A DNA stretch of 64,000 bases from an uncultured Oscillospiraceae bacterium (GCA_964490975.1 CAZBEQ010000001.1:27917-91916), one strand, 5' to 3'. Shown: positions 24,685-49,501, counted from the first letter of the stretch. Made by a program: numbers and translations. Notes: a model not told the origin generated them from the sequence alone.

Positions 24685-24759
24685 GGCGCCATAGCCAAGT
24701 GGTAAGGCACGGGTCTGCAAAACCCTTATCCCCCGGTCCGAATCCGGGTGGCGCCTCCA
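24685..24759 (+). tRNA. tRNA-Cys (GCA), integration target
   Basis: Cloverleaf with anticodon loop tctGCAaaa and an encoded CCA. Its 3' 45 nt recur at 49380-49424. Confidence 0.9.
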
Positions 24760-24836
24760 ATAAAAAGCCTCATTTACAGGGTTTCCCGTAAATGAGGCTT
24801 TTGCAATTTATATTATTTTTATTGAGTTGGGTACTA
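24715..24836 (+). repeat. attL-like direct repeat (122 bp: 3' part of tRNA-Cys plus 77 bp flank)
   Basis: 117 of 122 positions are identical to 49380-49501, with no indels. Confidence 0.9.
24765..24803 (+). terminator. Hairpin terminator after tRNA-Cys (part of the direct repeat)
   Basis: aagcctcatttac pairs with gtaaatgaggctt, followed by TTTT. An identical hairpin lies at 49430-49468. Confidence 0.8.
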
Positions 24837-25486
24837 CGAGAAATCAAACTTATTATTCTTCATGGTTCTGTTTATCAACTAATAACAAGCTTTCTAATTT
24901 ATATAAATTTCTTAATACCTCAAATTTTGCAATGAAAGCCGATAGGTATGAAAAAGGAAGTCATGTATATTCCAAACATTTTTAGGGGAAGATATAAATC
25001 CCAATATATACAGATTATAAGTTTGGATTTAGAAAAACATTCTTAACTTGGTACGATAAATCATTTAACCAATGTATAAAAACAATTTTCCAAATATGTT
25101 ATATGATGTTGTAATAGACACAACGATAAGTAAATTTAGGAATAGTTAGAGTTCTTGAGGATTTCACTTGAAGGGCTTATGCAAAATAGATGAGTATTCT
25201 ATGGAGCAAGAGCTCTTTTTTTCAAAAGTTTAAAGGCAAGTTCCCGGAAGAACATGCCTTTATAGAATAATTAAATATACGAATAAATAATTACACTACC
25301 CTTCATGATGTTGAGTGTTGGGAACAGAACATGGAAAAACAATATGTCCCGCGAAGCATGGGAACAACTTGAGCGTTGAAGAATCTGAAATTTATATTAA
25401 TATTACCCGAATAATATACTTATTTATGATTTTTCTTGACGAATAAATAAATTCAACATACAATATTGGCAATGAGGTGATTGTTT

Positions 25487-26773
25487 ATGCGTAGAAAAAT
25501 CGAGACTCAACTCGTAGAGTGGAAGGAAAGAGAGAGAATGCCCCTATTGCTTTACGGAGCCAGGCAGGTTGGAAAAACCTACATTCTTACAGAGTTTGGA
25601 GAGAAGTATTTCCACAATACTGTATATGTCAACCTGGAAACGAACCTCTCGGTTGCCAGATATTTTGATGACGACATTACGCCCGAAAGATTGATACGTT
25701 TCCTTGAAACAACGGTAAATGAAGAAATCATTCCTGATAAAACATTAATAATATTTGATGAAATACAAAGCTGCGAGAGAGCTCTGACGGCTCTTAAATA
25801 CTTTTGCGAGTTAGCACCGGAATATCATGTGGCGGCGGCTGGAAGTTTACTAGGTGTTGCCATAAATAGAGAAAAATATAGCTTCCCTGTGGGCAAGGTG
25901 GAAAGCATGACGCTCTACCCGCTGGATTTTGAGGAATTTCTATGGGCAATGGGAGAAGAACGGCTTGCTCAGGAAATCCGCAATTGTTTTACCGATATTG
26001 CACCGATGCCAGAAGCTCTCCACAATAAAGCATTGGAGCTGTATCGTTACTATTTGATAGTAGGCGGTATGCCTGCAAGCGTTTCATCCTTTATAAAATC
26101 CGGTAAATTGGTACTTGTACCTAACGTTCAGAATGAAATAACCGGCAACTATGTCGCCGACATGGCAAAGTATGCCGATACTTCCGAAACAGTGAAAATA
26201 CGCGCCTGCTTCAACTCCATACCTGCTCAGCTTGCCAAAGAAAACACGAAGTTTCAGTATAAGGTTATCCAAAAAGGCGGCAGTGCTGCTTTGTTCGGAG
26301 CTTCAATCGACTGGTTGACACAAGCGGGAGTCGTTTTGAAATGCCAAAAGATAGAGCATGCCCAGAACCCCATTTCTGTTTACGCAGATTTATCTTCTTT
26401 TAAGCTGTATATGAGTGATGTTGGCTTGCTTGTCATGAAATCTGGATTGGCACAACAAACGATATTGACTGGTGAATCCAACATTTTCATGGGAGCTGTA
26501 ACTGAAAATTATATTGCACAGGCGCTCGTGTCCAACGGATATACGCCTTACTACTGGACGAGCGAGCATTCGGCAGAGCTTGATTTTGTGATACAAAAGG
26601 ATGCGGATATTGTTGGCATTGAAGTCAAAAAGTCTACCAGTACCAAGTCAAAAAGTCTTGGTGTGTTCATTCAGAAGTATAAGCCTACCTATTCCATCCG
26701 GTTTTCAGAAAAGAACTTTGGTCAAAGCGAGGGGATACAGGCGATACCACACTATGCTGCATTTTGCGTATAA
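25487..26773 (+). CDS. AAA ATPase with DUF4143-type C-terminal domain
   Basis: Walker A GARQVGKT and Walker B IIFDEIQ. The ~430-aa architecture is typical of the AAA_14/DUF4143 family. Confidence 0.7.
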   Translation: MRRKIETQLVEWKERERMPLLLYGARQVGKTYILTEFGEKYFHNTVYVNLETNLSVARYFDDDITPERLIRFLETTVNEEIIPDKTLIIFDEIQSCERALTALKYFCELAPEYHVAAAGSLLGVAINREKYSFPVGKVESMTLYPLDFEEFLWAMGEERLAQEIRNCFTDIAPMPEALHNKALELYRYYLIVGGMPASVSSFIKSGKLVLVPNVQNEITGNYVADMAKYADTSETVKIRACFNSIPAQLAKENTKFQYKVIQKGGSAALFGASIDWLTQAGVVLKCQKIEHAQNPISVYADLSSFKLYMSDVGLLVMKSGLAQQTILTGESNIFMGAVTENYIAQALVSNGYTPYYWTSEHSAELDFVIQKDADIVGIEVKKSTSTKSKSLGVFIQKYKPTYSIRFSEKNFGQSEGIQAIPHYAAFCV

Positions 26774-26828
26774 AATGCTTCATTGCTGTGATTTCAGCAT
26801 ATACATTAAATTCAATCAAAGCAAAAAA

Positions 26829-26857
26829 ATAGAACGCAATGAGCGTTCTATTTTTTT
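26829..26857 (+). terminator. Intrinsic terminator
   Basis: atagaacgc pairs with gcgttctat, followed by a T7 run. Confidence 0.8.
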
Positions 26858-27092
26858 AGTAATTTTCTGCTTTCTTGCGGTTATTCCTTCAGAGAGTTGT
26901 ATATAGTGTTTCGATTTGTCTGTTATTAACGGTTTTATTATATGAAGACCGAACTCACCGCCGCACTTTCAGGGCGGTAGTGGTTCGGTTTTTTTGACGT
27001 TTATTTGTAGCAATAATAGAAAACGTATAAGTTCATTTTTAATTTATATATTCTCTCAATATATCAAAGAACCCAAAAGGATGTGATGAAAT

Positions 27093-27351
27093 ATGGACAT
27101 AAAGAAGTACGGAAGCCGGAACTGGGCAGTGTACGGCGATTTCGACAATTTAATTTGTGTAGCAGTCTACAAAAGGTGCTTTGGAAGTTTTGAACAGGCT
27201 TTCAGGTATAGAAACCGGAAACTATTCTGTCCCTTCTATTGATATTAAGGAATTTACGAAGCAACAAAAGGAAATAAGGCAGATACACAAAAAGCTTAAT
27301 AACATTTTTAATCAAATCAAATCCGAAAACAAGCTAAATGAAGCTGTTTAA
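27093..27351 (+). pseudogene. Small conserved mobile-element gene with +1 frameshift in an A-run
   Basis: MDIKKYGSRNWAVY...VAVYK continues in the next frame as GALEVLNRLSGIETGN...NEAV*. The 259-nt length is consistent with one extra A in acaaaagg (~27170). Confidence 0.5.
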
Positions 27352-27376
27352 AAAAACCAAAAAGGAGAGAATCATT

Positions 27377-28308
27377 ATGCCAGCAAATGTAGAAACCATG
27401 TTTTATGTAAGGGAAGCACCCTGGCACGGCCTTGGTACCCGTGTAGAAACTGCTCTTAGTTCTGAAGAGGCTCTAAAGGAATCAGGGCTAGACTGGACTG
27501 TAACACAACGACCTATTATGACAAGCGATTTCAAGCCTATTCCCGGCTACAAGGCGAATATACGCCAGACCGATGAAACTGTGCTTGGGGTGGTAACCGA
27601 CCGGTACAAAGTTGTTCAGAATCACGAAGCTTTTGAGTTTACTGATTCCCTGTTAGGCGAAGGGGTAAAGTTTGAAACGGCGGGAAGTTTGAACGGAGGA
27701 AGATATGGCTGCTCGCTAAACTCCCGGATAAGTACATCATGGAAGGTGAACGAATCGAACCGTTTCTAGTTTTTTCCAATACGCATGACGGGACAGGCAG
27801 TATCAAGGTCGCAATGACACCGATTAGGGTTGTCTGTCAAAACACTTTGAATATGGCTCTGGCCAGTGCAAAGCGTATATGGACAACAATTCATGTGGGC
27901 AATCTTTCTCAAAAGATGGAAGAAGCCCATAATACCTTATTACTTGCGGAGGATTATATGCAAAACCTTGGCGCAGAGTTCAGAAGGTTAAGTAAAGTTA
28001 AACTGTCCGACAGCAAAGTAATGGAGTATATTGAAATGCTGCTGCCTATGGCTGACAACCCAACGGAGATTCAGCGTAAAAATGTTATACAGATCAGGGA
28101 TGACTTGAAGATGAGATACTTTGACGCTCCCGATCTGCGCTATGTTGGGAAAAATGCTTACCGTTTCATCAACGCTGTGTCTGACTTCGCCACCCATGCC
28201 AAGCCTTTACGAGAGACATCTTCCTATCGTGAGAACGTTTTCGCTAAGACAATAGAGGGGAATCCCTTGCTTGACAAGGCTTATGAAATCGTTCTGGCTG
28301 TAGCGTAG
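27377..28308 (+). pseudogene. DUF932-family (phage/plasmid-like) gene, frameshifted
   Basis: The N-terminus (MPANVETMFYVREAPWHGLG) is typical of DUF932. The frame changes at ~27700: GSLNGG in one frame, RKIWLLAKLPDKYIMEGER in the next. This fits a 1-nt deletion. Confidence 0.7.
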
Positions 28309-28323
28309 ATGGGAGGATTGACT

Positions 28324-29268
28324 ATGTTTAAAATATTAACATCAACCGAGGGCCTATCAACCGAAGAGTGGCTAGAATTCCGAAGATTAGGCATTAGAGG
28401 ATCTGATTCCTCCGTTGTATGTGGAGTCAACCGTTATAAATCGCCCATTGAACTCTGGATGGAAAAAACGGGTCAATGGCCGAATCAGGAAGCAGGAGAG
28501 CCAGCATACTGGGGACAGCAGCTAGAATCTTTAGTACGAAATGAATTTACCAAGCGGACAGGCATTGAGGTAACTCTGGTAAAGCAAATGCTGCAAAGCG
28601 AAGCCCACCCCTTTATGCTCGCCAATCTTGACGGAATATGCGAACATCCGGATTATGGAACCTATGTATTTGAGGCCAAAACAGCTAGCACTTTTAAGAG
28701 TGGAGAATGGGAGGATGCCATACCGGATGAATATGTATTGCAAGTCCAGCACTATTTAGCCGTAACCGGTTATACGGGTGCTTTTATTGCAGTACTTATT
28801 GGCGGGAATCAATTCAAGTGGAAATATATAGAACGGGATGAAGAATTGATAGCCATGCTAATACAACTGGAAACAGACTTCTGGGGGCATGTTCAATCGA
28901 ACGTGCCTCCTTCTCTTGACGGTTCGGAGGCTGCCGCCAGGTTTCTGAGCGAAAGGTTTCCTGATAGTGTGCCGCAGTCCAGACTTGAACTGCCTCAAGA
29001 AGCTGCTTCCTTAATTGAACAATATAATCTTGCATGCGAGGGAGTCGAGAAGCATACCGAAAAGAAGCTGGAGGCGGAAAATCAATTAAAACAGATGCTT
29101 GGCGAGAATGAAGCCGGAACTGTCGGAGATAAGGTTATCATGTGGAAAGCAATTACACAGGAGCGATTAGATACAAAAACCCTAAAGGCCGAACACCCGG
29201 CATTATTCCAGAAGTACGCGAACAAAACCTCATATCGCAGGTTCTCCATCAAGCAGGTAGCTATATGA
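28324..29268 (+). CDS. YqaJ-like viral recombinase exonuclease (PD-(D/E)XK)
   Basis: GSDSSVVCGVNRYKSPIELW plus D...E.K (DGICEHP...VFEAKT). The likely start is ATG 28324, after GGGAGGA. Confidence 0.8.
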   Translation: MFKILTSTEGLSTEEWLEFRRLGIRGSDSSVVCGVNRYKSPIELWMEKTGQWPNQEAGEPAYWGQQLESLVRNEFTKRTGIEVTLVKQMLQSEAHPFMLANLDGICEHPDYGTYVFEAKTASTFKSGEWEDAIPDEYVLQVQHYLAVTGYTGAFIAVLIGGNQFKWKYIERDEELIAMLIQLETDFWGHVQSNVPPSLDGSEAAARFLSERFPDSVPQSRLELPQEAASLIEQYNLACEGVEKHTEKKLEAENQLKQMLGENEAGTVGDKVIMWKAITQERLDTKTLKAEHPALFQKYANKTSYRRFSIKQVAI

Positions 29269-29290
29269 AAAAGTAACGGGGAGGTACAGA

Positions 29291-30091
29291 ATGAACAATA
29301 CAAATCTTAAAAATCGTTTGAACGGGAAAGTACAAAACATGCAGGCTGAGCCAATGAAAGGAAAGGTTATAAATATGAAAGATACACTTTTAACAACAGA
29401 AACCGCATTAACATCTGCCGATTCCAATTATATCGCGCTTACGACAAACGCCCTGGACATAATTAATGAAAACTTGAAGAATCAGCCTCTTTCGTATCGA
29501 CTGTTTGATATTATCAAATCTCCGGCCGGAGGCGGCACAGTCTTTACCGTAGCCGGCCTGAGCGGAGATGAAATTCAAAAAGAACTGACGGGGATTATTC
29601 TTGATTATACCACCCCGAGGGCTTATTGGGAGACTACCAGCCCAGTGGAAGGGACTCCGCCAGTCTGTTACAGTAAAGACAGTATAATGTCAGTTGAAGG
29701 TAAGTCTTGTAGTCATTGTATTTACAATGAGTTCGGCTCAAAAGAAGGTGATTCAAACGGTAAGGCATGTAAAGAGTCGGTTTTACTATACCTGCTTCGC
29801 CCAGATAACATTATGCCGGTTTTTGTCCGTATTCCTGCATCAAGTAAATTTATCTTCCAGAGATATATGACAAGATTAATTGGCCGCCTTATTCCGTTGT
29901 ATGGTGTAGTGACAAAAATCACGCTCGAAAAGGCAACCAGCAAGACCGGACAAGCTTATGCACAGTTCAACTTTGAAGCTGTCAAGATGCTAAGTCCCGA
30001 AGAAGCCCGTAACGCCAAGACTTTTGGAAGTAAATTTGTAGAAATATTAAACGCCGCTGATAACGCAGAAGGCAATAAAGAAGCTGTGTAA
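29291..30091 (+). CDS. Hypothetical protein with a Cys cluster; positional candidate for the annealing/ssDNA-binding partner of YqaJ
   Basis: Good RBS. Contains a PVCYS...CSHC...ACK cysteine cluster. The function is inferred only from its position after the exonuclease. Confidence 0.35.
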   Translation: MNNTNLKNRLNGKVQNMQAEPMKGKVINMKDTLLTTETALTSADSNYIALTTNALDIINENLKNQPLSYRLFDIIKSPAGGGTVFTVAGLSGDEIQKELTGIILDYTTPRAYWETTSPVEGTPPVCYSKDSIMSVEGKSCSHCIYNEFGSKEGDSNGKACKESVLLYLLRPDNIMPVFVRIPASSKFIFQRYMTRLIGRLIPLYGVVTKITLEKATSKTGQAYAQFNFEAVKMLSPEEARNAKTFGSKFVEILNAADNAEGNKEAV

Positions 30092-30122
30092 GGGGTTACA
30101 TAACACTTTATCAACAAAACAG

Positions 30123-30152
30123 TCCCCGGACTCTAAATCCGGGGATTGCTTT
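30123..30152 (+). terminator. Intrinsic terminator
   Basis: tccccgga pairs with tccgggga, followed by a T-rich tail. Confidence 0.6.
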
Positions 30153-30177
30153 TACTAATTAACTTTTGGAGGCAGAC

Positions 30178-30366
30178 ATGAAAAAAGATCTCAATATAGA
30201 AATATACGGCCACAGAATTGATGATGTTGCAGAAAAAATTGGCTCTCTGTTTGGCGAGACAGGAAGGGCTGTCGGCAAGGCGATAGACAGTGTGACGAAA
30301 AACGTAACTATAAAAATTGACGATAAGAAAAACAATAGACAAAATGAGAATCCTTATAACTATTGA
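30178..30366 (+). CDS. Small hypothetical protein (62 aa)
   Basis: GGAGG lies 7 nt before ATG 30178. No recognisable family. Confidence 0.4.
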   Translation: MKKDLNIEIYGHRIDDVAEKIGSLFGETGRAVGKAIDSVTKNVTIKIDDKKNNRQNENPYNY

Positions 30367-30394
30367 TAATTTTATCTTACGAGGAAGGACTTTT

Positions 30395-30580
30395 ATGAGA
30401 TTCACTGACATATTCAAACCCAAGTGTGCTAAATGCCCTTATACGCTAGGGCTTGTAAAATTTGTGGTCTGCCCTTGTCCTTATTGCAAAAGAAACAATT
30501 ACTGCACATATCACAGGCTTATTAAAGGCAGGCATACATTCACTGAAAGTAAAAAAAGGAATAACCATACCTGTTGCTAA
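30395..30580 (+). CDS. Small cysteine-rich (zinc-ribbon-like) hypothetical protein (61 aa)
   Basis: GAGGAAGG RBS, then CAKCPY...CPCPYC. Confidence 0.4.
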   Translation: MRFTDIFKPKCAKCPYTLGLVKFVVCPCPYCKRNNYCTYHRLIKGRHTFTESKKRNNHTCC

Positions 30581-30769
30581 CAAGTAATAAATTACCGAAT
30601 GATATGATTTACATGTCCGTGCCTTGTTGCACGGGCATGTAAGTCATATGTTCCTACTAACTATTGTGGAGAAAAAGAATAAATAATGAAGAATTCTTGT
30701 GATTCACAATCAATGTGAAGCTATTTAAAGGGTTATCAGGGTTGCAATTTCTGCTCATAGCCTACACAA

Positions 30770-31117
30770 TTAAGTGTCCTTGAATACAATTTTTTCACGA
30801 TATAACTTTATATAGTCAATCAAAAATGACAATTCATCGTCTGTTGCATTGCTTAGCAAGGTCATTATCGTGTCTTTTTTATCGGTTGAAGACTCTAGGA
30901 TTATGTTTCTATCAAAAATTATTGAATCGGCGCTTACTCCAAGTGTCTTACAAACACCTATCAGTGTTTCAATGCTTAAAGAAGATTCTCCGCGTTCAAG
31001 GGTTCCCAGAAATGAAGAGGATATACCTATCAATTCAGATAGTGTATCTATTGTTAGGTTCTTACTTTTTCGAGCTAACCGTATATTCTCTCCAATATAT
31101 TTTAAATCATCTTTCAT
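30770..31117 (-). CDS. XRE-family HTH transcriptional regulator
   Basis: IGENIRLARKSKNLTIDTLSELIGISSSFLGTLERG is a classic Cro/CI HTH. Confidence 0.8.
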   Translation of the reverse strand: MKDDLKYIGENIRLARKSKNLTIDTLSELIGISSSFLGTLERGESSLSIETLIGVCKTLGVSADSIIFDRNIILESSTDKKDTIMTLLSNATDDELSFLIDYIKLYREKIVFKDT

Positions 31118-31311
31118 ATCATCACCTATGATAAATAGTACAGGCAAGCTGATGAGATTAGAACCGCATGTGGCAGGTGCTATTAGCGACTGTATTGCGG
31201 TTTTTTGAATTAACTGATATAATTTTCACAAGCAAGAATATTCAAAAACTACCATTATGAGCATATAGAACGAAAATTTCTAGAATATAAAAGTGAAGGA
31301 GACTTATTATT

Positions 31312-31866
31312 ATGAAGAAAGTTTTTGTTGGCATAATTTATATCTTACTTTTACTTGCTATACTAACAGGGTGTAGCACAATTACGCAAACTTTTGGAAA
31401 AGAGTATCTGTTAGTGGATGATTTTTATGACCAATTGGAAGCGGACATTAGGTTTTCCGTTAATGAATACACCTCTACGCAAAAAGATTATTCTGAGAGA
31501 AAGAGCGAAATAGATAATAGGTTAGATTTACTAATGGCAGATATAAAGATATCAAGAAGTGAAATGAAATCACAAATAGAGGATTTCAAAAAAAATGCAG
31601 ACGAATTAGGTTTTACCGGTTCTACATCTGATTATATAGAAAAAGTACTTTTAGAAACAAGAATAGGCATCGAACAAAAATTCAAAGAAGAGACTGATGG
31701 TAAATTCACTCTCAAACATGCTAAAGTGAATAGAGATTTCTTCAGTTCTGTATGGCATTTTGTCAGAAACCATTGGCTTATAACACTTATCATCTTTGGT
31801 GTTGTCTGTGCTCTTATTGAAAAGTTGGGAGAATTTTGGTCTGAGAAAGTAAAAATTGAGAAATAA
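31312..31866 (+). CDS. Lipoprotein, unknown function (C-terminal TM helix)
   Basis: Signal peptide with the lipobox LTGC. Confidence 0.6.
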   Translation: MKKVFVGIIYILLLLAILTGCSTITQTFGKEYLLVDDFYDQLEADIRFSVNEYTSTQKDYSERKSEIDNRLDLLMADIKISRSEMKSQIEDFKKNADELGFTGSTSDYIEKVLLETRIGIEQKFKEETDGKFTLKHAKVNRDFFSSVWHFVRNHWLITLIIFGVVCALIEKLGEFWSEKVKIEK

Positions 31867-32038
31867 GCATCAGACAGATACTGCCGGTTAATTGGAATGC
31901 AGGCATATGAATGAAAAAAATGTAAGCAAAGCTAATGTTGAAAATTGAGAAATAATGGAGCATAATGAAATAATAGGAGCCCTAGGTTGCTTAATCAACT
32001 TTTGGTATGCTAACTGAGAGTGAAAGGGGGATATTAGA

Positions 32039-33712
32039 ATGAAGAAATCAAACAAACTCGGTTACATCACAATTGTAATGATCCTTTCATTTATTACCGG
32101 TATAGCAACGCCTGCTTATGCAGTAGCTACTAAAGATGTAGCTAAACAATTGTCGGCGTACTTTATGTCTGGCGGAAAAGCTATCAGCCTTTGTGTCAAT
32201 GGCACAGAGATTACTAATGATTCTAATGGTAAAGCAGCTACTCCATTCACTTCTGACGGTGTTACATATGTGCCAGTTAGAGCTGCTAGTGAAGCTTTAG
32301 GTAAAGATGTTACATGGGATGCTGCTACTGCTACAGTTAAAATTACTGATAGAGCAACATCTACACCTGTCATGACAACAACAACTACTAAGACAATTAT
32401 ACATGATGCAGTTGAGCAATTGACGGTGTACTTTACAGCTGTTGGAAAAGACATTACCCTTTCTGTGGATGGTACTAAGGTTACCAAGGATTCTAACGGC
32501 AAAGCTGTTACTCCATTCACTTCTGACGGTGTTACATATGTACCAGTCAGAGCTGTTGCTGAGGCTCTGGGTAAAGATGTTACCTGGGATGCAACTACAG
32601 CTACAGTTAAAATAGCTGATAAAACATCATCTACACCTGCTGCAGAACCTGCTCCTGTCAACAAAGATATCAACAAGGTTGTCACCACAAAGAATGATAA
32701 GGGTTGGCTGGTAGATACTTTGACCAACTATGAATTTGTACTGGATAAAGAAGCTATTGGTACATGGGAACAGATTGAATATGTTGGAACTCCTGATCAA
32801 TTTGATGGAACAAATACAACAAGGAATGAACGTATCCCAATACGTATCCGCAACTTTTATGATGACGGCAGAGAGGTTGATTATGCTGTTAAAGATACAT
32901 TTATAGCAGAATTGAAGCAGGATAAAAATATTGATATAACTAAAATAGGACTCCCTTGGACTAAAGGTTATATTGATAACAATAATGTTCAGACTGTTTC
33001 AGCTTATGAAATCAGACAGATCAACGGCAAAACATTTATGTTTATTCAGCATAAATCCGGCGATTACACTATCAGAGGTAAAGAACCTGCTTACTTTGTA
33101 TTACTGAAAACTTCTGATACTCCTGATCCTGAATTCGCACCCAAGGTTACCCGGAATATTACAATAGATCCAACTGCTAAATCATTCAAGATGGAAGATG
33201 GTACAGTTGTAAATCTACCTGGAACGGGTAAGGATGAAAGCGGGAAGTTTACTACCATCGTAGATGATAAAGGTGAACGACATGACAAACTAAACGGTGA
33301 GTTCGAATTGGATAAAGACGCTGTAGGTGAATGGGAACTTTTCTTTATAGGTGATATACCTACAATATCAAAATACTTTGATCCTAATAGTGCTCCATGG
33401 AGTACATCACAAAATTGGAAAGGCCTTAGCATCTATGACGACGGTACGATGATTATGCGTTACATAGATAATGGGCATGTAGTTGATAGAAAAAATCTAC
33501 ACTGGACCAAAGGTTACTTTGTACGTATATTGTTCAATCGCGAGGATGTTATACCAGCTTATGCAATATCTACGATTAATGGCAAAACGTTTATGTTAAT
33601 GCAGTGGAAAAGCAACGATTATGTCACTAAGGGTATTATCACATCTTACTATGTATTTGTGAAAAACTCGTCAACTCCGGCTTCAAAGGATACAAACGTA
33701 TATGCAAAATAA
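32039..33712 (+). CDS. Secreted protein with two copper-amine-oxidase-N-terminal-like (stalk) domains and a duplicated C-terminal module
   Basis: Signal peptide. The DGVTYVPVRA..EALGKDVTWDA.TATVKI segment occurs twice, and two ~170-aa repeats each end in INGKTFM..Q.KS.DY. Confidence 0.7.
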   Translation: MKKSNKLGYITIVMILSFITGIATPAYAVATKDVAKQLSAYFMSGGKAISLCVNGTEITNDSNGKAATPFTSDGVTYVPVRAASEALGKDVTWDAATATVKITDRATSTPVMTTTTTKTIIHDAVEQLTVYFTAVGKDITLSVDGTKVTKDSNGKAVTPFTSDGVTYVPVRAVAEALGKDVTWDATTATVKIADKTSSTPAAEPAPVNKDINKVVTTKNDKGWLVDTLTNYEFVLDKEAIGTWEQIEYVGTPDQFDGTNTTRNERIPIRIRNFYDDGREVDYAVKDTFIAELKQDKNIDITKIGLPWTKGYIDNNNVQTVSAYEIRQINGKTFMFIQHKSGDYTIRGKEPAYFVLLKTSDTPDPEFAPKVTRNITIDPTAKSFKMEDGTVVNLPGTGKDESGKFTTIVDDKGERHDKLNGEFELDKDAVGEWELFFIGDIPTISKYFDPNSAPWSTSQNWKGLSIYDDGTMIMRYIDNGHVVDRKNLHWTKGYFVRILFNREDVIPAYAISTINGKTFMLMQWKSNDYVTKGIITSYYVFVKNSSTPASKDTNVYAK

Positions 33713-33844
33713 GTAAAATGAATTAGGGATATAATTCCCAAGTTAAAAGCCAGAATCACCTAAAATATCTGAAAGTAAAAAAATTAATCAAAGCATAAAC
33801 AGGGCTTCCTACACGGAAGTCCATTTTTATGTCTAAAAAAGGAG

Positions 33845-34126
33845 GTGTTATTTACGTCAAACGTAAAATTCCCACTTGGACAAACTGTAGCAACAAGAGG
33901 TGTGCTGGGTTTGTTAAACGATGATGAAATATTGAAACTCTTAACACGTCACTCTGCTGGAGATTGGGGTGATTTATGCTATGAGGACAAAAACCTCAAT
34001 AACTCTGCTCTGTCATCTGGTGAAGGTCGGCTATTCTCTGCTTATAATACTTTAAAAGGGAAGGTTTGGATAATCACAGAACATGACCGCTCTGCAACAA
34101 CAATTTTATTGCCAAATGAATACTAA
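33845..34126 (+). CDS. Small conserved plasmid/ICE-associated protein, unknown function
   Basis: I recall the motifs HSAGDWGDL and ITEHDRSATTILLPNEY from small proteins on plasmids and ICEs. The start codon is uncertain. Confidence 0.45.
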   Translation: MLFTSNVKFPLGQTVATRGVLGLLNDDEILKLLTRHSAGDWGDLCYEDKNLNNSALSSGEGRLFSAYNTLKGKVWIITEHDRSATTILLPNEY

Positions 34127-34296
34127 AGGGATTAGTGTTTTATGATGTCGCTGATTTAGGACTGTAAAGAATACAGATTGTGTTCATAATAGTATGTTAC
34201 TTTACAGATATGTTCATAAAATCAAGATAGGCTTTTTTGAATGCTGTCAATAAAAGAATTCCTATATTCAAAAAAGTACACATTTACGGAGGGAGT

Positions 34297-35627: not shown

Positions 35628-35665
35628 GATAGAGTTAACCTATAGGAGGACTGGAGGCTAATCAG

Positions 35666-35836: not shown

Positions 35837-35879
35837 TAGGTTTTATTTATTTTATATTTTATTAGAGGGAGGTACCTGT

Positions 35880-41315: not shown

Positions 41316-42237
41316 CTTTACAAAGGAAGTATTCGAAGCCTTCCCCAATGAAACGGGCTCGCAAAAAAAGCTAGAACTTGATTCTGCTATTAATGTTTAC
41401 TATGGGGTGAGTAACGAAGGAAATCCGCGCCTTTCGTTCATGTCATCTGTTGCTCCACCCAAGATGGACTCCACGAAGCTGTTGAAAGTCATTCAAGGTA
41501 AAGAAATGGATGGGGTTTACTGGACGAGTTTTGATTTGCTTCAGGCAAACGCAAAACAAGTATTCTATTCCTTTTGCAGTGATCTTGTAGGTTCGGTAGA
41601 AAACATCGATGAAGAAAAGAAAGCCCTCGTTTACCTAAAGAATCGGTTCTATATCTGGAAGTCGATGTTTAAAAAGGGAAGCTTGAGTATCTCAGACGAA
41701 CTGTTAAAAGGACTTTTCGGTGAACTGTATTTTCTTCAAACATTTTTATCGGATAAGTACGGAATGGCTAAAGCCATAGAAGCATGGAGCGGAGCAGACG
41801 GAGCGGCTAAAGATTTTTCCGTCGGTACTGACTGGTACGAGATAAAAGCAGTGTCTTCATCTTCGGTAAGCGTAAAAATTCCATCCGTTTCTCAGCTTTC
41901 GTCCGATTTGCCCGGACATCTTGTCATAGTCAAAATTGAATTTATGTCACCTGTGTTTGTAAACGGAAAATCAAGTATAGGTGAACTGCTTCAGGCAATA
42001 TTGAACAAGATTGAAATTGATGAAGTCAGGGAAACCTTTCTCGGCAAGCTCGCTCAGTATGGTCTTGATTTGACTGATGAATGCTGTTTAAAAAAATTTT
42101 GCGTATCATCGATACATTTCTACACAGTTGATTCGGATTTCCCGCGCATTTTGGAAGAAGATGTTAAATACAAGGAAATTTGCAAAGTCAGCTATGAATT
42201 GATAATCAACTCTCTGGATCGGTTTAAGGAGGGGTAA
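41275..42237 (+). CDS. PD-(D/E)XK motif protein (DUF4420-like)
   Basis: AKDFSVGTDWYEIKAV gives the D...E.K motif. An alternative TTG start at 41308 follows GAGGAGGA. Confidence 0.7.
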   Translation: MVKILKRRNSTLSNFTKEVFEAFPNETGSQKKLELDSAINVYYGVSNEGNPRLSFMSSVAPPKMDSTKLLKVIQGKEMDGVYWTSFDLLQANAKQVFYSFCSDLVGSVENIDEEKKALVYLKNRFYIWKSMFKKGSLSISDELLKGLFGELYFLQTFLSDKYGMAKAIEAWSGADGAAKDFSVGTDWYEIKAVSSSSVSVKIPSVSQLSSDLPGHLVIVKIEFMSPVFVNGKSSIGELLQAILNKIEIDEVRETFLGKLAQYGLDLTDECCLKKFCVSSIHFYTVDSDFPRILEEDVKYKEICKVSYELIINSLDRFKEG

Positions 42238-42239
42238 CC

Positions 42240-44330
42240 ATGGATTTATTGGAATACAGAGAATACTATCTGAACCAAATTAAAGCCACTTCGATTGAGG
42301 AAGAAAGATATCCTTACGAGGTTTTCATTGATCTGGTTTCAGAAATAATGGTCAGTGACTGGTCGCTCCTTTCATGCATAGATCAGTGTTATTTCTCTGT
42401 TCCCACAGGCACCCGTGCGTTCAAGAGTATGCTTATCCATGCAGGTTCTCTTGAACTTTCCACAAATACGGTCAATCTGCTTTTTGCAGACTATAACTCG
42501 GAAGAGATCGCAAATATAACGAACACTGACATCAACACCCATAGCAATCAGATGGTTAGTTTCGTTGAAAATGCACTGAAAGGCTATTTCGCCAATGCTG
42601 AACAGTCTAATCCGGCTGTTCAGTTGGCTCTTAATATCAAGCGAAATGCCCCCGATATATACAAAATTCATCTCTTTATTATTAGCACCAATCAACTCAG
42701 CAAGCGTGTCAAGAGGATTGATTTGGACGATGTTCAGATACTGGGAAAAACCTATAAAGTTGAACTCGATATTATTGACTTTGAGAAGATTTTCAATGTT
42801 CAGCTTGCTTCAGCTGAAAAGGAAGATGTAGTAATTGACGTTGCAGAATTCGGTATTGACGGTATCCAGTGCATTAGAGCCGATATCGGAACTGGAAGCT
42901 ATGAAGCGTACCTCGCGGTCGTACCGGGAGAATTTCTATCCAATATTTATAAGAAATTCGGCCCGAGACTGCTCGAAAGAAATGTCCGTTCATTCCTTCA
43001 ACTACATGGCGGCGTTAACAAGGGAATCCGGGGCACAATCCTAAATGAGCGTCAGAATTTCTTCTCGTACAATAACGGCATCTCAACAACAGCAAAGCGC
43101 GTTACCTTGGTTGATATTCCGGGCAAAGGGATGTGTCTTACCTCTTTTACCGATTTGCAAATTATTAACGGCGGTCAAACTACCGCATCACTTGCTTCCG
43201 CAAGCATAAAAGATGGAGCGCCGCTTGACGGCATTTTCGTTCAGATGAAGCTTACCGTAATATTGGACGAAAGCGAAGAAGGCGATGAATTTGTCAGGAA
43301 AACATCCCAATACGCAAACAGCCAGAATAAAGTAACTTCTGCGGATTTGGTTTCAAACCATCCGTTCTATCTGCGAATAGAGGAATTCTCGCGCAAGATG
43401 TATGCGCCGCCGTCAAAGGGCTTACCATATCAGACGCTGTGGTTCTTTGAGCGTTCACGTGGGCAATACGATCAGCCAAAAATGAAAATGACAAAGAGCG
43501 AACGTGCCACTTACGAGCGTGTGAATCCTCATACCCAGCGTTTTGATAAGACCGATCTAGCTAAGTACATAAATTCTACTGACATGTTACCTTTCAATGT
43601 GGCTTGGGGACGTGAAGTAAACTCTGTACGCTTCCAAGTTGAAATGGAGAAGCAGTGGCGTAAAGATCCGTCTGTATTTAACGAATCCTACTATCGTGAA
43701 CTGATTGCAAAGGCGATTATTTTCATTAGCATCCGTAAAACTATTCTTGGGTTGGATTGGTACAAAGAGAACAAAGGATATTTAATCCAATTGGTCACAT
43801 ACACATTCTCAAAACTGATTTATGAAGTCCAGAAGCTCGGAAGAATGATGAACTACCGCCAGATATGGGATAAGCAGGAGCTGGCCGATTTTCTAACTGC
43901 CGATATTGCCTGCATTGCATTTGCTATAAGGGAATTGCTTATCAGTCCGAACCACGGCAACATTGAGACATACTGCAAGAACAGAGACTGCTGGACTGCC
44001 GTGCAGGAAATTCAGATTGAACTGAGTGGCTTAACGAAATCCTTTCTTGTTAGCAAGGACGATGTCCGTGACGAAAAAATCGCAGCAAAACGGGAGCAAA
44101 GATTTAGCGACGGGATATCGATTGAAGTTCAGGTATTCGAGTTCGGCGAGGAGTATTGGAGTCGCCTAATGTCAATTGGTAAACAGCAGGGATTGCTCAA
44201 CGGAGCGGATATTCAACTTCTCGGATTGGCAATAGAATATTGTAAAGGCTTGCGTGGCTTGCCCCAGTCGCATTTCAAGAAAATTATGGCTGTGCGCGAT
44301 AAACTTTTCGAAGCCCAAATTCCTGTATAA
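42240..44330 (+). CDS. AIPR (abortive-infection phage-resistance) family protein
   Basis: 696 aa with NNGISTT...IINGGQTTASL, typical of AIPR. It starts 2 nt after the upstream stop. Confidence 0.8.
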   Translation: MDLLEYREYYLNQIKATSIEEERYPYEVFIDLVSEIMVSDWSLLSCIDQCYFSVPTGTRAFKSMLIHAGSLELSTNTVNLLFADYNSEEIANITNTDINTHSNQMVSFVENALKGYFANAEQSNPAVQLALNIKRNAPDIYKIHLFIISTNQLSKRVKRIDLDDVQILGKTYKVELDIIDFEKIFNVQLASAEKEDVVIDVAEFGIDGIQCIRADIGTGSYEAYLAVVPGEFLSNIYKKFGPRLLERNVRSFLQLHGGVNKGIRGTILNERQNFFSYNNGISTTAKRVTLVDIPGKGMCLTSFTDLQIINGGQTTASLASASIKDGAPLDGIFVQMKLTVILDESEEGDEFVRKTSQYANSQNKVTSADLVSNHPFYLRIEEFSRKMYAPPSKGLPYQTLWFFERSRGQYDQPKMKMTKSERATYERVNPHTQRFDKTDLAKYINSTDMLPFNVAWGREVNSVRFQVEMEKQWRKDPSVFNESYYRELIAKAIIFISIRKTILGLDWYKENKGYLIQLVTYTFSKLIYEVQKLGRMMNYRQIWDKQELADFLTADIACIAFAIRELLISPNHGNIETYCKNRDCWTAVQEIQIELSGLTKSFLVSKDDVRDEKIAAKREQRFSDGISIEVQVFEFGEEYWSRLMSIGKQQGLLNGADIQLLGLAIEYCKGLRGLPQSHFKKIMAVRDKLFEAQIPV

Positions 44331-44374
44331 TGGTAATTACCGATAAAACGAACGGAAGAAAGGAGGATTTGAAA

Positions 44375-44668
44375 ATGTCGAACAGAAATTAGACACGCGA
44401 AGAAACAATTCTTGCTTTTTAGCGGTACTGTCACGTTCCTTTTGGCAAAATCCGTTAGTTAAGCAGTTAAGCAACAGTTATAGGCAAAACGCCGTCGGCA
44501 GTTAGTATGAAGATATGCAACTATGGAAGATTTAATTAGGCCTTAAAAAACCGATATATTTAGATATGGTCTACGTCATACTTTTTCAAAGCGTCAAGTG
44601 ACAAGATCAATTTTTATGCTCCCATCCTTCCGAAGATACCGGGGAAAGCGGGTAGAATACCTGCATAG
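44375..44668 (+). pseudogene. HNH-endonuclease-like gene remnant with multiple in-frame stops
   Basis: Intact RBS (AGGAGGA) and ATG. The translation is MSNRN*TREETILAF*RYCHVPFGKIR*LSS*ATVIGKTPSAVSMKICNYGRFN*ALKNRYI*. It resembles the N-terminus of PF13391-type HNH proteins (NWTREE...GRTPSAV.MK..N). Confidence 0.55.
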
Positions 44669-45066
44669 TATGAACCATATAAGGTTCGCGCTGAGATAGT
44701 AAGCAGTGGTCAATTCGATACATGATCATCGTTTTTTTACTTTCTTTTTCCGCTATTTACCTATTCACTCTTATGTATTATTCTGTTAGCGATGGTATTC
44801 ATTTTCTGTATACCATTCTTAAACAAATAAGTTGTTAACATTCCGTAAAGTTAATAACAGACCTTCAGAATAATTAATTTCAATAATTAGTAATTTACAT
44901 CGTATATCAGAATGTATTGTTTCCGCAATTGCTGTTAAGAATATTGTATCTTGAAGTCCGTAGTCATCAGGATGGAAACAAAGGAATATTTGTTATTAAC
45001 TTTTTTTAATATATGCTATCTAAGCTCACTATATAGTAATTATTTTTGAATGAGGTGGTGAATTAG

Positions 45067-46338
45067 ATGCAAAATACTTCACAGGGCGTGCATACATTTT
45101 CTTTTTTTCAAAGAGTAAAAGAGAATGAGTATTTTTCATTAAAGAGCGATTTCGAAAAGTATATTAAAGAGAAAGGTGAGTTGGAACGTCAGCCCATCAA
45201 AGATAAAAATGACCCAAAGAAAATAACAGGGTGGATATATACTTATGAAAGCAGAAAAGGAATCAGATGGGTGCTACATTCTACCAAAGTGAGTCATGAG
45301 TTTACTATATATGTTATTATGGGCATCATCACCCCGAAAGTCCTTATTGGAAATAATTACATAGCAGTCGCAAACGCAGCTGATCTTGATCAAGTTGAAT
45401 ATTTATTTAACAAAGAAGCAGAAAAAATTTCCCCTATATTGAACAAATTCGGGTTCTGTTCAATGAACCGTGCCGATCCCGGCTTAACTATTGACCTTAA
45501 AGAATTAAATTATCCCTGCTCCCCTGAACAGCTGACGATACTGATAAAACGTGGTGATATTCCGAAACATTTTGTTGAGCGGATGAAATATAACGACAAA
45601 GCTCATAGAAAAGAGGCTGATAAGTACAGCCATTATCTGGAGAATGACTCGGTTGTTATAAACTACTACTGGAAATACCCGAAGATAAATAAACACCACC
45701 CTGATTTTATAAACAAAGAAAATTTCCGTAATGTAATACGCTTTGAAACGGAATGCATGTACCGAAAATTATATTCAATATCGAAAAACTTAAAACGCAA
45801 TTCAAGATATTGCAAATCCTATGACGATATTCCGGTAGACGAACTTTTGGAGATGGCCGAGAATAATATCCGCAACCCATCAATTCCAATAGATGTCATG
45901 TTGTCCGATGATGTTTCCGCTAATGTCATCCGTAGCTACTTTAATAAAGTGATACGGCAGGGAGATTACTTAACTTTAGATGGTGCGAGATGGATGGTTG
46001 CGGCACATAATTTCAGACGGGATAAAGAAGAACGATTGATATTCGCTTTGGAGCTAATCAACGAATGTCGGAGTATTGCCAAAGCCAAAAAGAAACTGTA
46101 TGGCGAAGAAGTAAAAGAGTTCAAACGGTCACTAAATGATTTAGATGCCATACTGGTTAACCCTGTCACAATACCAAGAGAATGGGAAATTTTCTATATT
46201 CCCAATCCTATCCGAGCTTACTATAATTATATTACGGAAGAGCAATTAGTACCTAAAGCAGAAGTTCTGTTTGACAATCTTTTAGCAGAATATCTTTTAG
46301 AAACAAAGAGGCATAAAACACGTACCCAATCTTCTTAA
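45067..46338 (+). CDS. Hypothetical protein, weak resemblance to Rep_trans / gene II-type rolling-circle initiators
   Basis: 423 aa, AT-rich, good RBS. Spaced motifs NRADPGLTIDL, VINYYWKYPK and VIRFETECMYRKL loosely recall RxD..D / YdK / R.E blocks. Confidence 0.3.
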   Translation: MQNTSQGVHTFSFFQRVKENEYFSLKSDFEKYIKEKGELERQPIKDKNDPKKITGWIYTYESRKGIRWVLHSTKVSHEFTIYVIMGIITPKVLIGNNYIAVANAADLDQVEYLFNKEAEKISPILNKFGFCSMNRADPGLTIDLKELNYPCSPEQLTILIKRGDIPKHFVERMKYNDKAHRKEADKYSHYLENDSVVINYYWKYPKINKHHPDFINKENFRNVIRFETECMYRKLYSISKNLKRNSRYCKSYDDIPVDELLEMAENNIRNPSIPIDVMLSDDVSANVIRSYFNKVIRQGDYLTLDGARWMVAAHNFRRDKEERLIFALELINECRSIAKAKKKLYGEEVKEFKRSLNDLDAILVNPVTIPREWEIFYIPNPIRAYYNYITEEQLVPKAEVLFDNLLAEYLLETKRHKTRTQSS

Positions 46339-47014: not shown

Positions 47015-48436
47015 ATGAATAATTCAATTGTACGGATAGATAATATTTCTATTCGCAATTTCAAAAATGTCGTTAATGGCGAAGTATCTTTAATTAATAA
47101 TAGGAAAGAATATGAGACAAGTATTGTTGGATTGTATGGACAAAATGGTTCTGGAAAAACAGCTCTCATTGATGCTATTGAATTATTAAAGCTTACATTG
47201 TGTAGTCAACCAATACCTATCAAATATGCTGATTATATAAATGTTGATGCTCCATATTCGGAGTTGAAGTATATTTTAAAAGTTAACAATCCAAAAGAAA
47301 ATAGCATGTATACGGTATACTATGATTTTTGTATTAAGAAAGAATTAGATACTTCATCTCAAAATACAGATACACCTGATGTTGATGCTGAAAAATTCAA
47401 GGTAGCAATATTTAATGAAGTTCTTAGTTATTCATTTTCTTGTGATAAAGGTAGTAAAGATGATAATAGAAAGCAAAAAGTAATAGACACTCAGACCGAC
47501 GATGTCTTTATTCCGAAGACAAAATATGACTTGTTAACGAATAAAAATAAAAATGTTACCACTGACCTATTAGTTGCTAAAAAGCTGGCTTATGCAACGT
47601 CCAGATCCTTTATTTTTTCCAAAGAACTTTTAAGCGTCTTACGTAGCAATTGCAAAGTAGAATGGCATTTATTCTTATTTGAAGTTTTGGTTTATTACGG
47701 GAATTTTAATTTATTCGTAATAAACACTTCAAATTCTGGACTTATAAGCATGAACGCTCTTCCCCTAGCTTTTAAGTACGAGGAAAAAAATATGGGTTTT
47801 GTAGGCAACCTAACAATTCCACTAGAAGGTACAGCTACTATTCCGCAGGATGCTGTTGATCTTGTTAAAAAGCTAACCCAAAACATGAATATTGTCTTAA
47901 GTCAACTTGTTCCAGGATTAACAATAAGCATTAAAGACTTAGGTCCTCAAATATTAAAAAATGGTAAGATTGGTTGTAAAATTGAAGTAGTATCCCATAA
48001 AAATAGCAAGGAAATTCCTCTAAGATATGAATCTGATGGAATTAAAAAGATTATTTCAATTCTTCAGTTACTAATCGTAATATATAATAAGTCGTCTATC
48101 ACTGTCGCAATTGATGAATTAGATGCCGGAGTATTTGAATATCTTTTAGGAGAGCTATTACGAATAATCTCTGAGAAAGGAAAAGGACAGCTAATCTTTA
48201 CTTCGCATAATCTCCGACCATTGGAAACATTAGATAAAGGCTTTATAGCTTTTACAACAACTAATCCCGTAAATAGATATATCCGCCTAAATAATGTTAA
48301 AACTAATCATAATTTGAGGGATTTCTATTACCGTGATATTGTACTTGGTGAACAAAACGAAGAAGTGTACGAACCTACGAATAACTATGAAATTTCACTT
48401 GCATTTAGAGAGGCAGGTGAATTTAGTGGCACGTAA
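47015..48436 (+). CDS. ABC/SMC-like AAA ATPase (AAA_15/21 type; AbiLi/RloA/AriA-like)
   Basis: Walker A GLYGQNGSGKTA, Walker B VAIDELDAGV, H-loop FTSHN. Confidence 0.75.
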   Translation: MNNSIVRIDNISIRNFKNVVNGEVSLINNRKEYETSIVGLYGQNGSGKTALIDAIELLKLTLCSQPIPIKYADYINVDAPYSELKYILKVNNPKENSMYTVYYDFCIKKELDTSSQNTDTPDVDAEKFKVAIFNEVLSYSFSCDKGSKDDNRKQKVIDTQTDDVFIPKTKYDLLTNKNKNVTTDLLVAKKLAYATSRSFIFSKELLSVLRSNCKVEWHLFLFEVLVYYGNFNLFVINTSNSGLISMNALPLAFKYEEKNMGFVGNLTIPLEGTATIPQDAVDLVKKLTQNMNIVLSQLVPGLTISIKDLGPQILKNGKIGCKIEVVSHKNSKEIPLRYESDGIKKIISILQLLIVIYNKSSITVAIDELDAGVFEYLLGELLRIISEKGKGQLIFTSHNLRPLETLDKGFIAFTTTNPVNRYIRLNNVKTNHNLRDFYYRDIVLGEQNEEVYEPTNNYEISLAFREAGEFSGT

Positions 48437-49109
48437 AAAAATAGTATTTATTATCGTAGAAGGACCGTCCGATGAAGAAGCTCTGGGTGTTGTTTTAAGT
48501 AAAATATATGATAGCAATGCAGTGTATGTTCATATAATGAGATGTGATATAACTACCGAGAATGGCTCTACGCCAGCAAATATAATTACCAAAGTATATA
48601 ATGCAATAAAACAATATGCAAATGATAACCATTTTACCCAAATTCATTTTCAAGAAATTATTCATATCGTTGATACAGATGGGGCCTATATTTCTGAAGA
48701 ACTGGTCATAGAAGATAATACATTATTGGACCATGTGTATTCAACTGATAACATCAGAACACCAAACAAACAAGGAATCGCACAAAGAAACATCCAAAAG
48801 AGTGCGAATTTAAATAAACTGGCTTCGATAAGCACAATATGGGGCTTGCCTTATCAGATTTACTATATGTCGTGCAATTTAGACCATGTACTTTATAATA
48901 AAATAAATAGCACAAACGATGAAAAAGAAAGAGATTCTTTTAATTTTGCAAAACAATATAAAACTGATATAGAAGGCTTTCTATCTTATATTTGTCACTC
49001 GGATTTTTCTATAATGACCGATTACAGACAATCATGGGACTATATAAAAATGGGCTCTAATTCATTAAAGCGGCATACTAATTTAGGGCTTTGTTTAAAT
49101 ACCACATGA
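48426..49109 (+). CDS. RloB-like / TOPRIM-type partner protein (AbiLii-like)
   Basis: GTG 48426 overlaps the ATPase stop by 11 nt. Contains IVEGPSDE (Glu motif), IVDTDG (DxD) and MSCNLDHVLY. Confidence 0.55.
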   Translation: MARKKIVFIIVEGPSDEEALGVVLSKIYDSNAVYVHIMRCDITTENGSTPANIITKVYNAIKQYANDNHFTQIHFQEIIHIVDTDGAYISEELVIEDNTLLDHVYSTDNIRTPNKQGIAQRNIQKSANLNKLASISTIWGLPYQIYYMSCNLDHVLYNKINSTNDEKERDSFNFAKQYKTDIEGFLSYICHSDFSIMTDYRQSWDYIKMGSNSLKRHTNLGLCLNTT

Positions 49110-49379
49110 AGATTAACACAGTAAATTTACCCTCATAGATGGTAACCTTTGGTATATAAAAGGTGTTTCACAGTTTTAAAATTGTAGATCGGCGAAAAAT
49201 CCGTATTTTAACAAATGTTTCGAGATACTTCCTATAAAACAGTTGGGTACTATTTGGGTACTATACATATAAAATAATACCCAATAATATAACATCTTAC
49301 ATATGCATAGCCAATGCAAAACCTTTAAAATACAAGGTTTTTGCATGCAATTTAAATATACAAAACGACTAATCGAGTC

Positions 49380-49501
49380 CTGCAAAACCCTTATCCCCCG
49401 GTCCGAATCCGGGTGGCGCCTCCAACAAAAAGCCTCATTTACAGGGTTTCCCGTAAATGAGGCTTTTACCATTTATACTATTTTTATTGAATTGGGTACT
49501 A
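49380..49501 (+). repeat. attR-like direct repeat (3' 45 nt of tRNA-Cys plus 77-bp flank)
   Basis: 117 of 122 positions are identical to 24715-24836, including the hairpin at 49430-49468. Confidence 0.9.

Follow-up and report, generated by a model that had tools for sequence, protein, structure and literature searches.

Introduction

Integration of an element, its decay to a cis-mobilizable element (CIME) and the accretion of further elements beside it form an established scheme for ICEs (integrative and conjugative elements) and for IMEs (integrative and mobilizable elements) (PMC5704250). The CIMEs related to ICESt1 and ICESt3 of Streptococcus thermophilus are examples (Pavlovic 2004 and Bellanger 2011, as reviewed in PMC5704250). 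For islands in tRNA genes, a regenerated gene with a displaced fragment and attP sites centred on the anticodon are likewise established (PMC4383910), and sublocation classes of such islands have been described (Williams 2002, as cited in PMC4383910). Here, we analyze a stretch of 64,000 nt from an uncultured Oscillospiraceae bacterium (GCA_964490975.1 CAZBEQ010000001.1:27917-91916; hereafter, the window), in which an island (island A, 24760-49424) lies at a tRNA-Cys gene. We are fairly confident that island A is a decayed, left-truncated ICE or IME of CIME-like type that a tyrosine integrase once inserted.

Comparing the locus with these systems, we find a close but incomplete agreement. Like the CIMEs, island A is flanked by the left and right attachment sites (attL and attR) of an ICE/IME family, has its integration and transfer genes deleted, and stands in a tandem array formed by accretion. 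It differs from the ICESt1/ICESt3 CIMEs in its target, which is tRNA-Cys and not fda, in its uncultured, Clostridia-type host from anaerobic digesters, and in an attL that is short of one arm motif. Like the tRNA islands of Islander, it has a regenerated tRNA gene, a displaced 3' fragment in the same orientation, identity that begins at the anticodon loop, and arm repeats on both sides. Unlike them, it has no integrase gene left, so Islander's integrase filter would reject it, and at 122 bp its block of identity exceeds the usual length, apparently through a flank inherited from an earlier occupant.

ICEBs1 and Tn916-type elements are Firmicute ICEs or IMEs that use a tyrosine integrase and whose transfer region is modular. 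The relatives of island A resemble them in combining an arm-binding tyrosine integrase, a small gene of excisionase (Xis) size, FtsK/SpoIIIE or a relaxase plus coupling protein, and cargo hotspots; unlike them, the integrase module of the relatives is interchangeable with a large serine recombinase (locus L088). Their PDC-S01/DUF932/YqaJ/Cu_amine_oxidN1 backbone matched no named ICE in this analysis. As in the PADLOC-DB defence islands on mobile elements, three defence loci (Mza, PDC-S01 and AbiL) sit at variable hotspots of a mobile backbone.

A 122-bp repeat of the tRNA-Cys 3' half bounds the island

The tRNA-Cys(GCA) gene (24685-24759, + strand; called by ARAGORN, Rfam tRNA 62.1 bits) is intact. 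It closes a cluster of tRNA genes (Val-Asp-Phe-Gly-Cys) that is conserved in relatives and is situated downstream of hslO. HslO matched uncultured Bacillota only, in Acetivibrionales-like metagenome-assembled genomes from anaerobic digesters (best match, 93%). An exact-protein look-up of the left-flank DUF3795 gene returned no record.

The initial annotation had described a recurrence of the last 45 nt of tRNA-Cys, starting in the anticodon loop, plus 77 nt of flank at 49380-49501. Aligning the two copies, we obtained the same result: they are identical at 117 of 122 positions without any indel, and the repeat opens with the first base of the anticodon loop. The left copy (24715-24836, +), which we assign to attL, contains the tRNA 3' half (24715-24759, the core part), a terminator hairpin (24763-24802) and one arm motif (24827-24836). 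The right copy (49380-49501, +), assigned to attR, contains the displaced 3' half (49380-49424) and the 77-nt flank, and it matches family members as far as 49506. The tRNA part is the same in both copies (45/45), and all five mismatches lie past the tRNA 3' end (24761, 24803, 24805, 24813 and 24826). The intact tRNA gene and its 3' fragment are both on the + strand and so share one orientation, as in Islander islands, and there is no integrase inside the island.

The shared flank carries a strong hairpin, preceded by an A-run and followed by a T-run (folding free energy -24.9 kcal/mol, z = -8.0). A simple terminator scanner misses it owing to a bulge, while folding shows it. This hairpin could act as a transcription terminator in both directions. 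The 77-nt flank is not present in the closest relatives (L003, L007, L009, L011 and L013); it occurs in the more distant L014 (88% identity, with glycoside hydrolase genes directly after it) and in L016. The island-free site of L014 (11813-11891) keeps the terminator and one TTGGGTACTATT, unlike the closer relatives of the window, and these are probably relics of a former occupant. In the window, we interpret the 77-nt flank of attR as what is left of the P' arm of a family member that was there before.

Putative arm motifs mark both ends

Exact matches to TTGGGTACTA number four in the whole 64 kb (24827, 49243, 49254 and 49492), against about 0.12-0.15 expected by chance. An inverted copy with one mismatch (TTGGGTATTA) lies at 49275-49284. 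The P arm of attR (49242-49379, +) thus consists of the direct motifs at 49243 and 49254, the inverted motif, and a conserved spacer to the core. In L016, L084 and L086, the motif is kept beside an integrase as a tandem pair with 11-bp spacing; one of these 11-bp units is absent from the attL of the window.

The right arm of L099 retains the tandem pair and the inverted copy. It is 80% identical to window 49242-49425 over 184 nt, and this alignment includes all three motifs, the spacer and the junction with CTGCAAAACC. Beyond its P arm, L099 has a diverged displaced tRNA-Cys 3' half followed by unrelated flank, and the 77-nt flank is not found at this attR. Since the P arm recurs in L099, we consider it a family feature, place the boundary between element and host at the anticodon loop, and conclude that the 77-nt flank is not intrinsic to attR. 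The earlier suggestion that the motif copies are recombinase arm sites gains support from their conservation beside the integrase in three loci and in the right arm of L099, and we treat the TTGGGTACTA motifs as putative arm sites bound by Int.

The P arm also contains a hairpin at 49300-49352 (TGCAAAACCTT...AAGGTTTTTGCA; -12.3 kcal/mol, z = -2.0), which is partly kept in L099. Its arms resemble the anticodon-loop core CTGCAAAACCC. It may serve as an additional site of the core type, or simply as a terminator.

The missing integrase is found beside the same attachment sites in other assemblies

Searching the island open reading frames (ORFs) of at least 100 aa with Pfam, we found no match to Phage_integrase. 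Performing tblastn with two family integrases, we obtained nothing significant anywhere in the window. The island therefore holds no tyrosine integrase, as first reported. Profile scans of the annotated proteins of 24760-49424 detected no excisionase, relaxase, coupling protein or FtsK/translocase either.

The initial annotation had proposed a tBLASTn search for integrase remnants near the island ends. That search found nothing significant, as said above; alignment revealed a weak 36-nt stub at the left end. This stub (24866-24901, - strand, about 12 codons) reads KLESLLLVDKQN, against KLENLLLVDKNN in L016, with 83% identity to L016 over 36 nt and 30/38 nt matching in the alignment. The region of its stop codon was removed by a 47-nt deletion. 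We regard it as a probable remnant of a tyrosine integrase 3' end, weak by itself and supported by its collinear position.

A metagenome scan for the terminator plus motif returned four loci. L083 and L085 are further copies of the L016 locus, and these three belong to the same species; L084 is new; L082, an ORF-dense and tRNA-free stretch, was rejected as a chance match. In L016, the flank is followed by TTGGGTACTATTTGGGTACT and then by an opposite-strand tyrosine integrase that converges on the tRNA. In L084, read in the tRNA orientation, tRNA-Cys is followed by the flank, two motifs, a short stub of an integrase gene and 1.9 kb of other DNA. Next comes another flank, degenerate and again with two motifs; it precedes an intact 487-aa integrase (Pfam Phage_integrase 1.2e-20, SAM_3 9.5e-16), a 92-aa gene, FtsK/SpoIIIE and a 495-aa gene. 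The series ends in DNA 86.6% identical to window 27018-27765, which puts an int module to the left of DUF932. The integrase of L084 begins with MATIEKRGENSYRLTVSCGYD, which we take to resemble the arm-binding domains of Tn916 and ICEBs1-type integrases.

In L086, tRNA-Cys is followed by a 9.5-kb island with its own 329-aa integrase. After it come a partial tRNA-Cys copy, which starts at the same anticodon-loop position as the window repeat, the flank, two motifs and a 465-aa integrase (P0001) 93% identical to that of L084. Both L084 and L086 are tandem arrays at the same tRNA. In L016, L084 and L086 alike, the tRNA-Cys 3' half, the terminator and two 11-bp-phased TTGGGTACTA copies adjoin a tyrosine integrase of 465-487 aa. 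The left-end att architecture of the window is thus found again beside this integrase in three independent assemblies. Because att-site homology identifies the missing integrase, no unusual recombinase is needed.

The island is a probable deletion derivative of a longer element

The family picture was pieced together from several metagenomic contigs. Their shared backbone has the order PDC-S01, 87-aa gene, DUF932, YqaJ, 266-aa gene, small ORFs, XRE and Cu_amine_oxidN1. Window 25309-33700 is collinear with L090, L091, L093, L094 and L097 at 83-92%, and window 35503-46338 is 91.5% identical at the nucleotide level to L099, the continuation of the L097 contig. The backbone homology to L097, L091, L094 and L090 starts abruptly at 25309-25391, about 470 nt past attL; therefore, the left module has been deleted in the window. 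A putative deletion junction (24902-25308), with no ORF and no match, separates the integrase stub from this homology.

The relatives carry various modules at this position. To the left of PDC-S01, L091 has a MobA/MobL relaxase and a coupling protein of the type IV secretion system (T4SS). In L088 (2834-4387), a 517-aa large serine recombinase accompanies the DUF932-YqaJ backbone, a pairing that indicates integrase-module swapping inside the family. On a second contig, near-identical to L088, a truncated Mn-catalase gene adjoins the large serine recombinase.

The island therefore matches the description of a CIME on three counts. It retains an attL like that of L016, L084 and L086 and an attR that resembles L099 in its P arm; it is devoid of the genes for integration and transfer that relatives carry; and its 83-93% collinearity with longer elements points to derivation from an ICE or IME by deletion. 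A functional ICE or IME has its own integrase and a relaxase or translocase, with a T4SS in the case of an ICE, and island A is not equipped in this way. Large-serine-recombinase islands, of which L088 illustrates a relative, bear at one end a recombinase of about 450-550 aa that contains Recombinase and Zn_ribbon domains, and they show no repeat from a regenerated target; island A does not follow this pattern.

A third tRNA-Cys end reveals a tandem array

Downstream of tRNA-Cys, six related species are readable (L003, L007, L009, L011, L013 and L014), and none carries the island or the right-flank genes of the window (0/6). The case that would have spoken against an insertion, namely that all relatives carry the same 25 kb, was thus not encountered. 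The proposed comparison with empty sites gave a divided answer: the island is not in these six species, and there is no strictly syntenic empty site. Therefore, the empty-site argument rests on a 40-nt native flank at 54501-54541.

The acceptor end of tRNA-Cys has four matches in the window, against 0.01 expected: the gene itself, 49408-49424, 54501-54517 and 55021-55037. The third one (54501-54517, +; 16/17 nt, direct) is followed by GAAAAGAATCCCT, the native tRNA-Cys flank of L013 and L007, and 54501-54541 matches L013 at 38/41 positions. Since the native flank begins at about 54518, the inserted DNA extends over 24760-54517, a tandem array of about 29.8 kb that would comprise at least two elements. 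The first description of a repeat-bounded insertion at tRNA-Cys is thus correct, but its bounds enclose a single unit, and the array to which this unit belongs is larger and extends to 54517. The accompanying suggestion, that the 77-bp flank reflects accretion, agrees with the flank-free right junction of L099, the arrays of L084 and L086, and the third tRNA-Cys end at 54501.

The second unit, island B (49502-54500, +), is a 5.1-kb stretch with no recombinase. It encodes membrane-anchored paralogues of 428 aa and 537 aa, a MarR regulator and a PNPOx-like protein. The paralogues (49974-51260 and 51753-53366) share 27% identity (E = 5e-22), and neither has a sequence match in Pfam, NCBIfam, PHROG or PDB.

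Past the array, a 3' fragment similar to tRNA-Cys lies inverted at 55021-55051 on the - strand and runs from T-loop to CCA (acceptor part 15/17; 81% over 31 nt). At precisely this place, an ORF that resembles a 4Fe-4S membrane protein is missing its 5' portion. The fragment may be the scar of another integration, or of an inversion.

The island mixes decayed genes with intact defence loci

Nearly all island genes are on the + strand. The first backbone gene encodes PDC-S01, a candidate defence ATPase (25481-26773, +; Pfam AAA_14 and DUF4143; PADLOC 2.6e-172), with 95-97% aa identity in L090 and L091. Next, in the block 27018-28308, come a small ORF with a frameshift (about 27090-27340, +) and a split DUF932 gene (27338-28308, +), which Pfam detects in two pieces. 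Relative to L084, a 2-bp deletion at about 27175 and a 4-bp deletion at about 27697 account for both frameshifts that had been noticed at 27093 and 27377; relatives carry intact 87-aa and 311-aa genes. The YqaJ-type exonuclease (28309-29268, +; Pfam YqaJ 3e-43) and its conserved 266-aa partner (29291-30091, +) form the recombination module of the backbone (28309-30091; match to phrog_23155), with 84-90% aa identity in many contigs. An XRE repressor identified by Pfam (30770-31147, - strand) is followed by a 184-aa lipoprotein-like gene (31312-31866). The Cu_amine_oxidN1-repeat protein (32039-33712; Pfam) ends the conserved backbone, and the block from the XRE repressor to this gene is collinear with L090 and L094.

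At 33713-35502 (+), the window has a specific insertion with a 93-aa ORF and, by Pfam, an intact and a decayed resolvase. L097 and L099 do not have this insertion and carry a SpoOE-like gene in its place. The intact small serine resolvase (34237-34899, +; 220 aa, Pfam Resolvase 1.2e-28) is, as first stated, the only intact recombinase of the island and lies in its middle; it belongs, however, to a 1.8-kb window-specific insertion unrelated to the island ends. The decayed copy (35046-35480, +) is stop-ridden and gives a Pfam match of 1e-15 on a patched translation, consistent with the decay by stops reported at 35046.

The following block (35503-44330, +) starts with a small gene matching the HTH_17 gene of L099 and contains the Mza system (35880-44330, +): a C5 methylase, MzaB (HATPase_c_3), MzaC (Z1), MzaD (DUF4420) and MzaE (AIPR). 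The methylase and MzaB-E stand in one operon, and all five match PADLOC models (MzaB 7e-66, MzaC 5e-105, MzaD 2e-11, MzaE 6e-63, MTase_II 9e-55). A megablast of the resolvase and Mza region against plasmids gave no match. After Mza, a decayed stretch (44331-45066) has stops in every frame, again as first noted for 44375, and includes a resolvase N-terminal fragment (44561-44626, - strand). A 423-aa gene follows (45067-46338), whose product has no family match and no PDB sequence match; L099 shares this gene and the decayed stretch within one continuous 10.85-kb alignment. Between the resolvase fragments, we observed a 39-nt inverted repeat (35108-35146 / 44561-44599). The idea that Mza is a cassette between inverted resolvase fragments was dropped, as the left fragment belongs to the window-specific insertion and the right one is common to L099.

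The end-proximal cargo (47015-49109, +) is an AbiLi-like AAA ATPase (Pfam AAA_21 and AAA_15; PADLOC AbiLi 2.8e-25) with a partner of about 240-258 aa, which shows a sub-threshold OLD-like Toprim match (E = 0.013). This pair is not homologous to the AAA_21 plus RloB pair at the same place in L099. The 258-aa gene was considered as an RloB homologue and rejected, since BLASTP showed no similarity to the L099 partner gene.

Two cargo hotspots can be compared among the backbone relatives. The first, downstream of Cu_amine_oxidN1 (window 33713-44330), is occupied by Mza in L093, L097 and the window itself, by a different Dcm plus HATPase_c_3 system in L090, and by N6_N4_Mtase, MTaX1 and an SNF2 helicase in L094; L095 showed no cargo at this point, and its next genes are of a kind usual in host chromosomes. 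The second, between PDC-S01 and the 87-aa/DUF932 genes (window 26774-27017), is empty in the window. It contains a 1202-aa protein in L090 (4372-7980), a group II intron reverse transcriptase in L091 (6302-7720), and a Y1 transposase with an AIPR protein in L094 (5263-8274).

Elsewhere in the window, and unrelated to the island, we noted a flavin mononucleotide (FMN) riboswitch (960-1088), three tandem 58-bp repeats (16472-16647), and 30-bp tandem repeats (59488-59727) within a 1846-aa ORF on the minus strand.

Discussion

The repeat and its motifs, the homologies, the genes present and the indels can all be read directly; from them, we infer a crossover position, the binding of Int to the motifs and an order of events. 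One or more first elements would have integrated at tRNA-Cys and decayed, leaving island B and a relic P' arm with the terminator and about one and a half motifs. An ancestor of at least 38 kb would then have circularised, and its tyrosine integrase of 465-487 aa, with an N-terminal arm-binding domain, would have recombined attP with tRNA-Cys by a crossover at the anticodon loop. We predict that attP runs from a P arm, with TTGGGTACTA twice direct and once inverted, through the 45-nt tRNA-Cys 3' half, a bidirectional terminator and a P' arm with tandem TTGGGTACTA to int on the opposite strand. The tRNA 3' half and terminator borne by the element would complete a working gene at attL, with the host copy displaced to attR. 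The repeat would be 122 bp long, and not 45 bp, because an earlier family member had left its 77-nt flank at the target. A later deletion would have taken int, xis and the transfer module, fusing the last int codons to the region upstream of PDC-S01. The remnant would keep both att sites and the defence cargo (PDC-S01, Mza and the AbiL-like pair) without the capacity for self-excision; it could leave only through RecA-dependent recombination between the 122-bp repeats, or with the integrase of an incoming relative.

Several observations weigh against this history. No relative was recovered in which a single contig unites int with the full backbone and both att sites. The left modules differ (tyrosine integrase plus FtsK in L084, large serine recombinase in L088, relaxase plus coupling protein in L091), and the exact deleted content is therefore uncertain. 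In none of the relatives does the DNA downstream of tRNA-Cys contain counterparts of the genes that lie to the right of the array. Taken alone, the integrase stub does not reach significance (nhmmer E = 0.17 across the window), for which reason we dropped it as standalone proof and cite it as positional support only. Finally, the window comes from a metagenome assembly, and in a k-mer assembly made from that sample the contig is interrupted within the repeat.

An extension of our explanation is that island A is still mobile, in cis or in trans, with the integrase and excisionase of a sibling element at another place in the genome, or of an incoming element that inserts at attL or attR, excising it alone or as part of a composite. 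The att cores are identical (45/45), the P arm is fully conserved with L099, and tandem arrays occur at the same tRNA in L084 and L086; in other ICE families, cis-mobilization of such remnants is documented (PMC5704250). However, attL is short of one of the two P' motif units, and no related integrase lies within the 64-kb window. We consider present mobility possible but unlikely.

A second alternative regards the backbone as a prophage or a phage satellite, and not as a conjugative or mobilizable element. YqaJ with its partner, the XRE repressor and the PHROG match would fit such an origin, as would L100, in which Mza stands beside phage portal and capsid genes. Yet neither the island nor its backbone relatives have capsid, portal, terminase or lysis genes, L091 carries a relaxase and coupling protein, and L084 carries FtsK/SpoIIIE. 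Moreover, scanning 2.9 million viral contigs with the hairpin att pattern, the tandem arm motif and the integrase protein, we found zero matches. A phage origin thus appears quite improbable.

The repeat and its join could also be an artefact, arising from metagenome misassembly through the 122-bp sequence or from a local duplication without site-specific integration. The source is an assembly from an uncultured organism, and the Logan contig of the same sample ends inside the repeat; a look-up of the right-flank 428-aa gene returned the same strain only, on a contig ending inside the repeat. Nevertheless, five mismatches tell the copies apart, and each is joined to its expected arm, the left one to the P' arm and integrase stub and the right one to the P arm. 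Independent assemblies show the same architecture, and the distance from the Logan break to the next mismatch is 30 nt, as would be expected of a k-mer graph branch. We judge an artefact very improbable.

That the small serine resolvase (34237-34899), although the sole intact recombinase of the island, serves as its integrase and excisionase is hardly credible, as it sits in a 1.8-kb insertion absent from the otherwise 91-93% identical L097/L099 element, has no C-terminal domains of a large serine recombinase, and leaves unexplained both the island ends, which match att sites beside tyrosine integrases in three loci, and a repeat that starts at the anticodon loop with regeneration of the tRNA, the signature of a tyrosine integrase (PMC4383910).

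A decayed, CIME-like element inserted by a tyrosine integrase is thus our preferred explanation of island A. Its decayed state is an ordinary fate for such elements and its structure is standard; the defence systems themselves are not new, MzaB-E matching PADLOC models; and no new recombination mechanism is indicated. The locus offers a worked example in which an integrase-less tRNA island with long repeats is explained by comparing att sites, and not genes, with metagenomic relatives.

A bolder proposal, which we hold to be speculative and rather improbable, is that the backbone family represents an undescribed lineage of integrative transferable elements in anaerobic-digester Clostridia. Its integration modules would be swappable (tyrosine Int at tRNA-Cys, large serine recombinase elsewhere), it would have at least three defence-cargo hotspots, and its decayed members would leave a terminator and one arm motif at tRNA-Cys, as in the attR of the window and in L014. 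The 122-bp repeat would then reflect target-site priming by serial occupancy. If this is true, the relic terminator and motif would offer the next incoming element a longer stretch of homology and perhaps one more site for Int to bind.

The comparison documents a mobile-element family that moves Mza, PDC-S01 and AbiL-type defence among uncultured Clostridia. Elements appear to land at tRNA-Cys repeatedly, to accumulate there and to decay.

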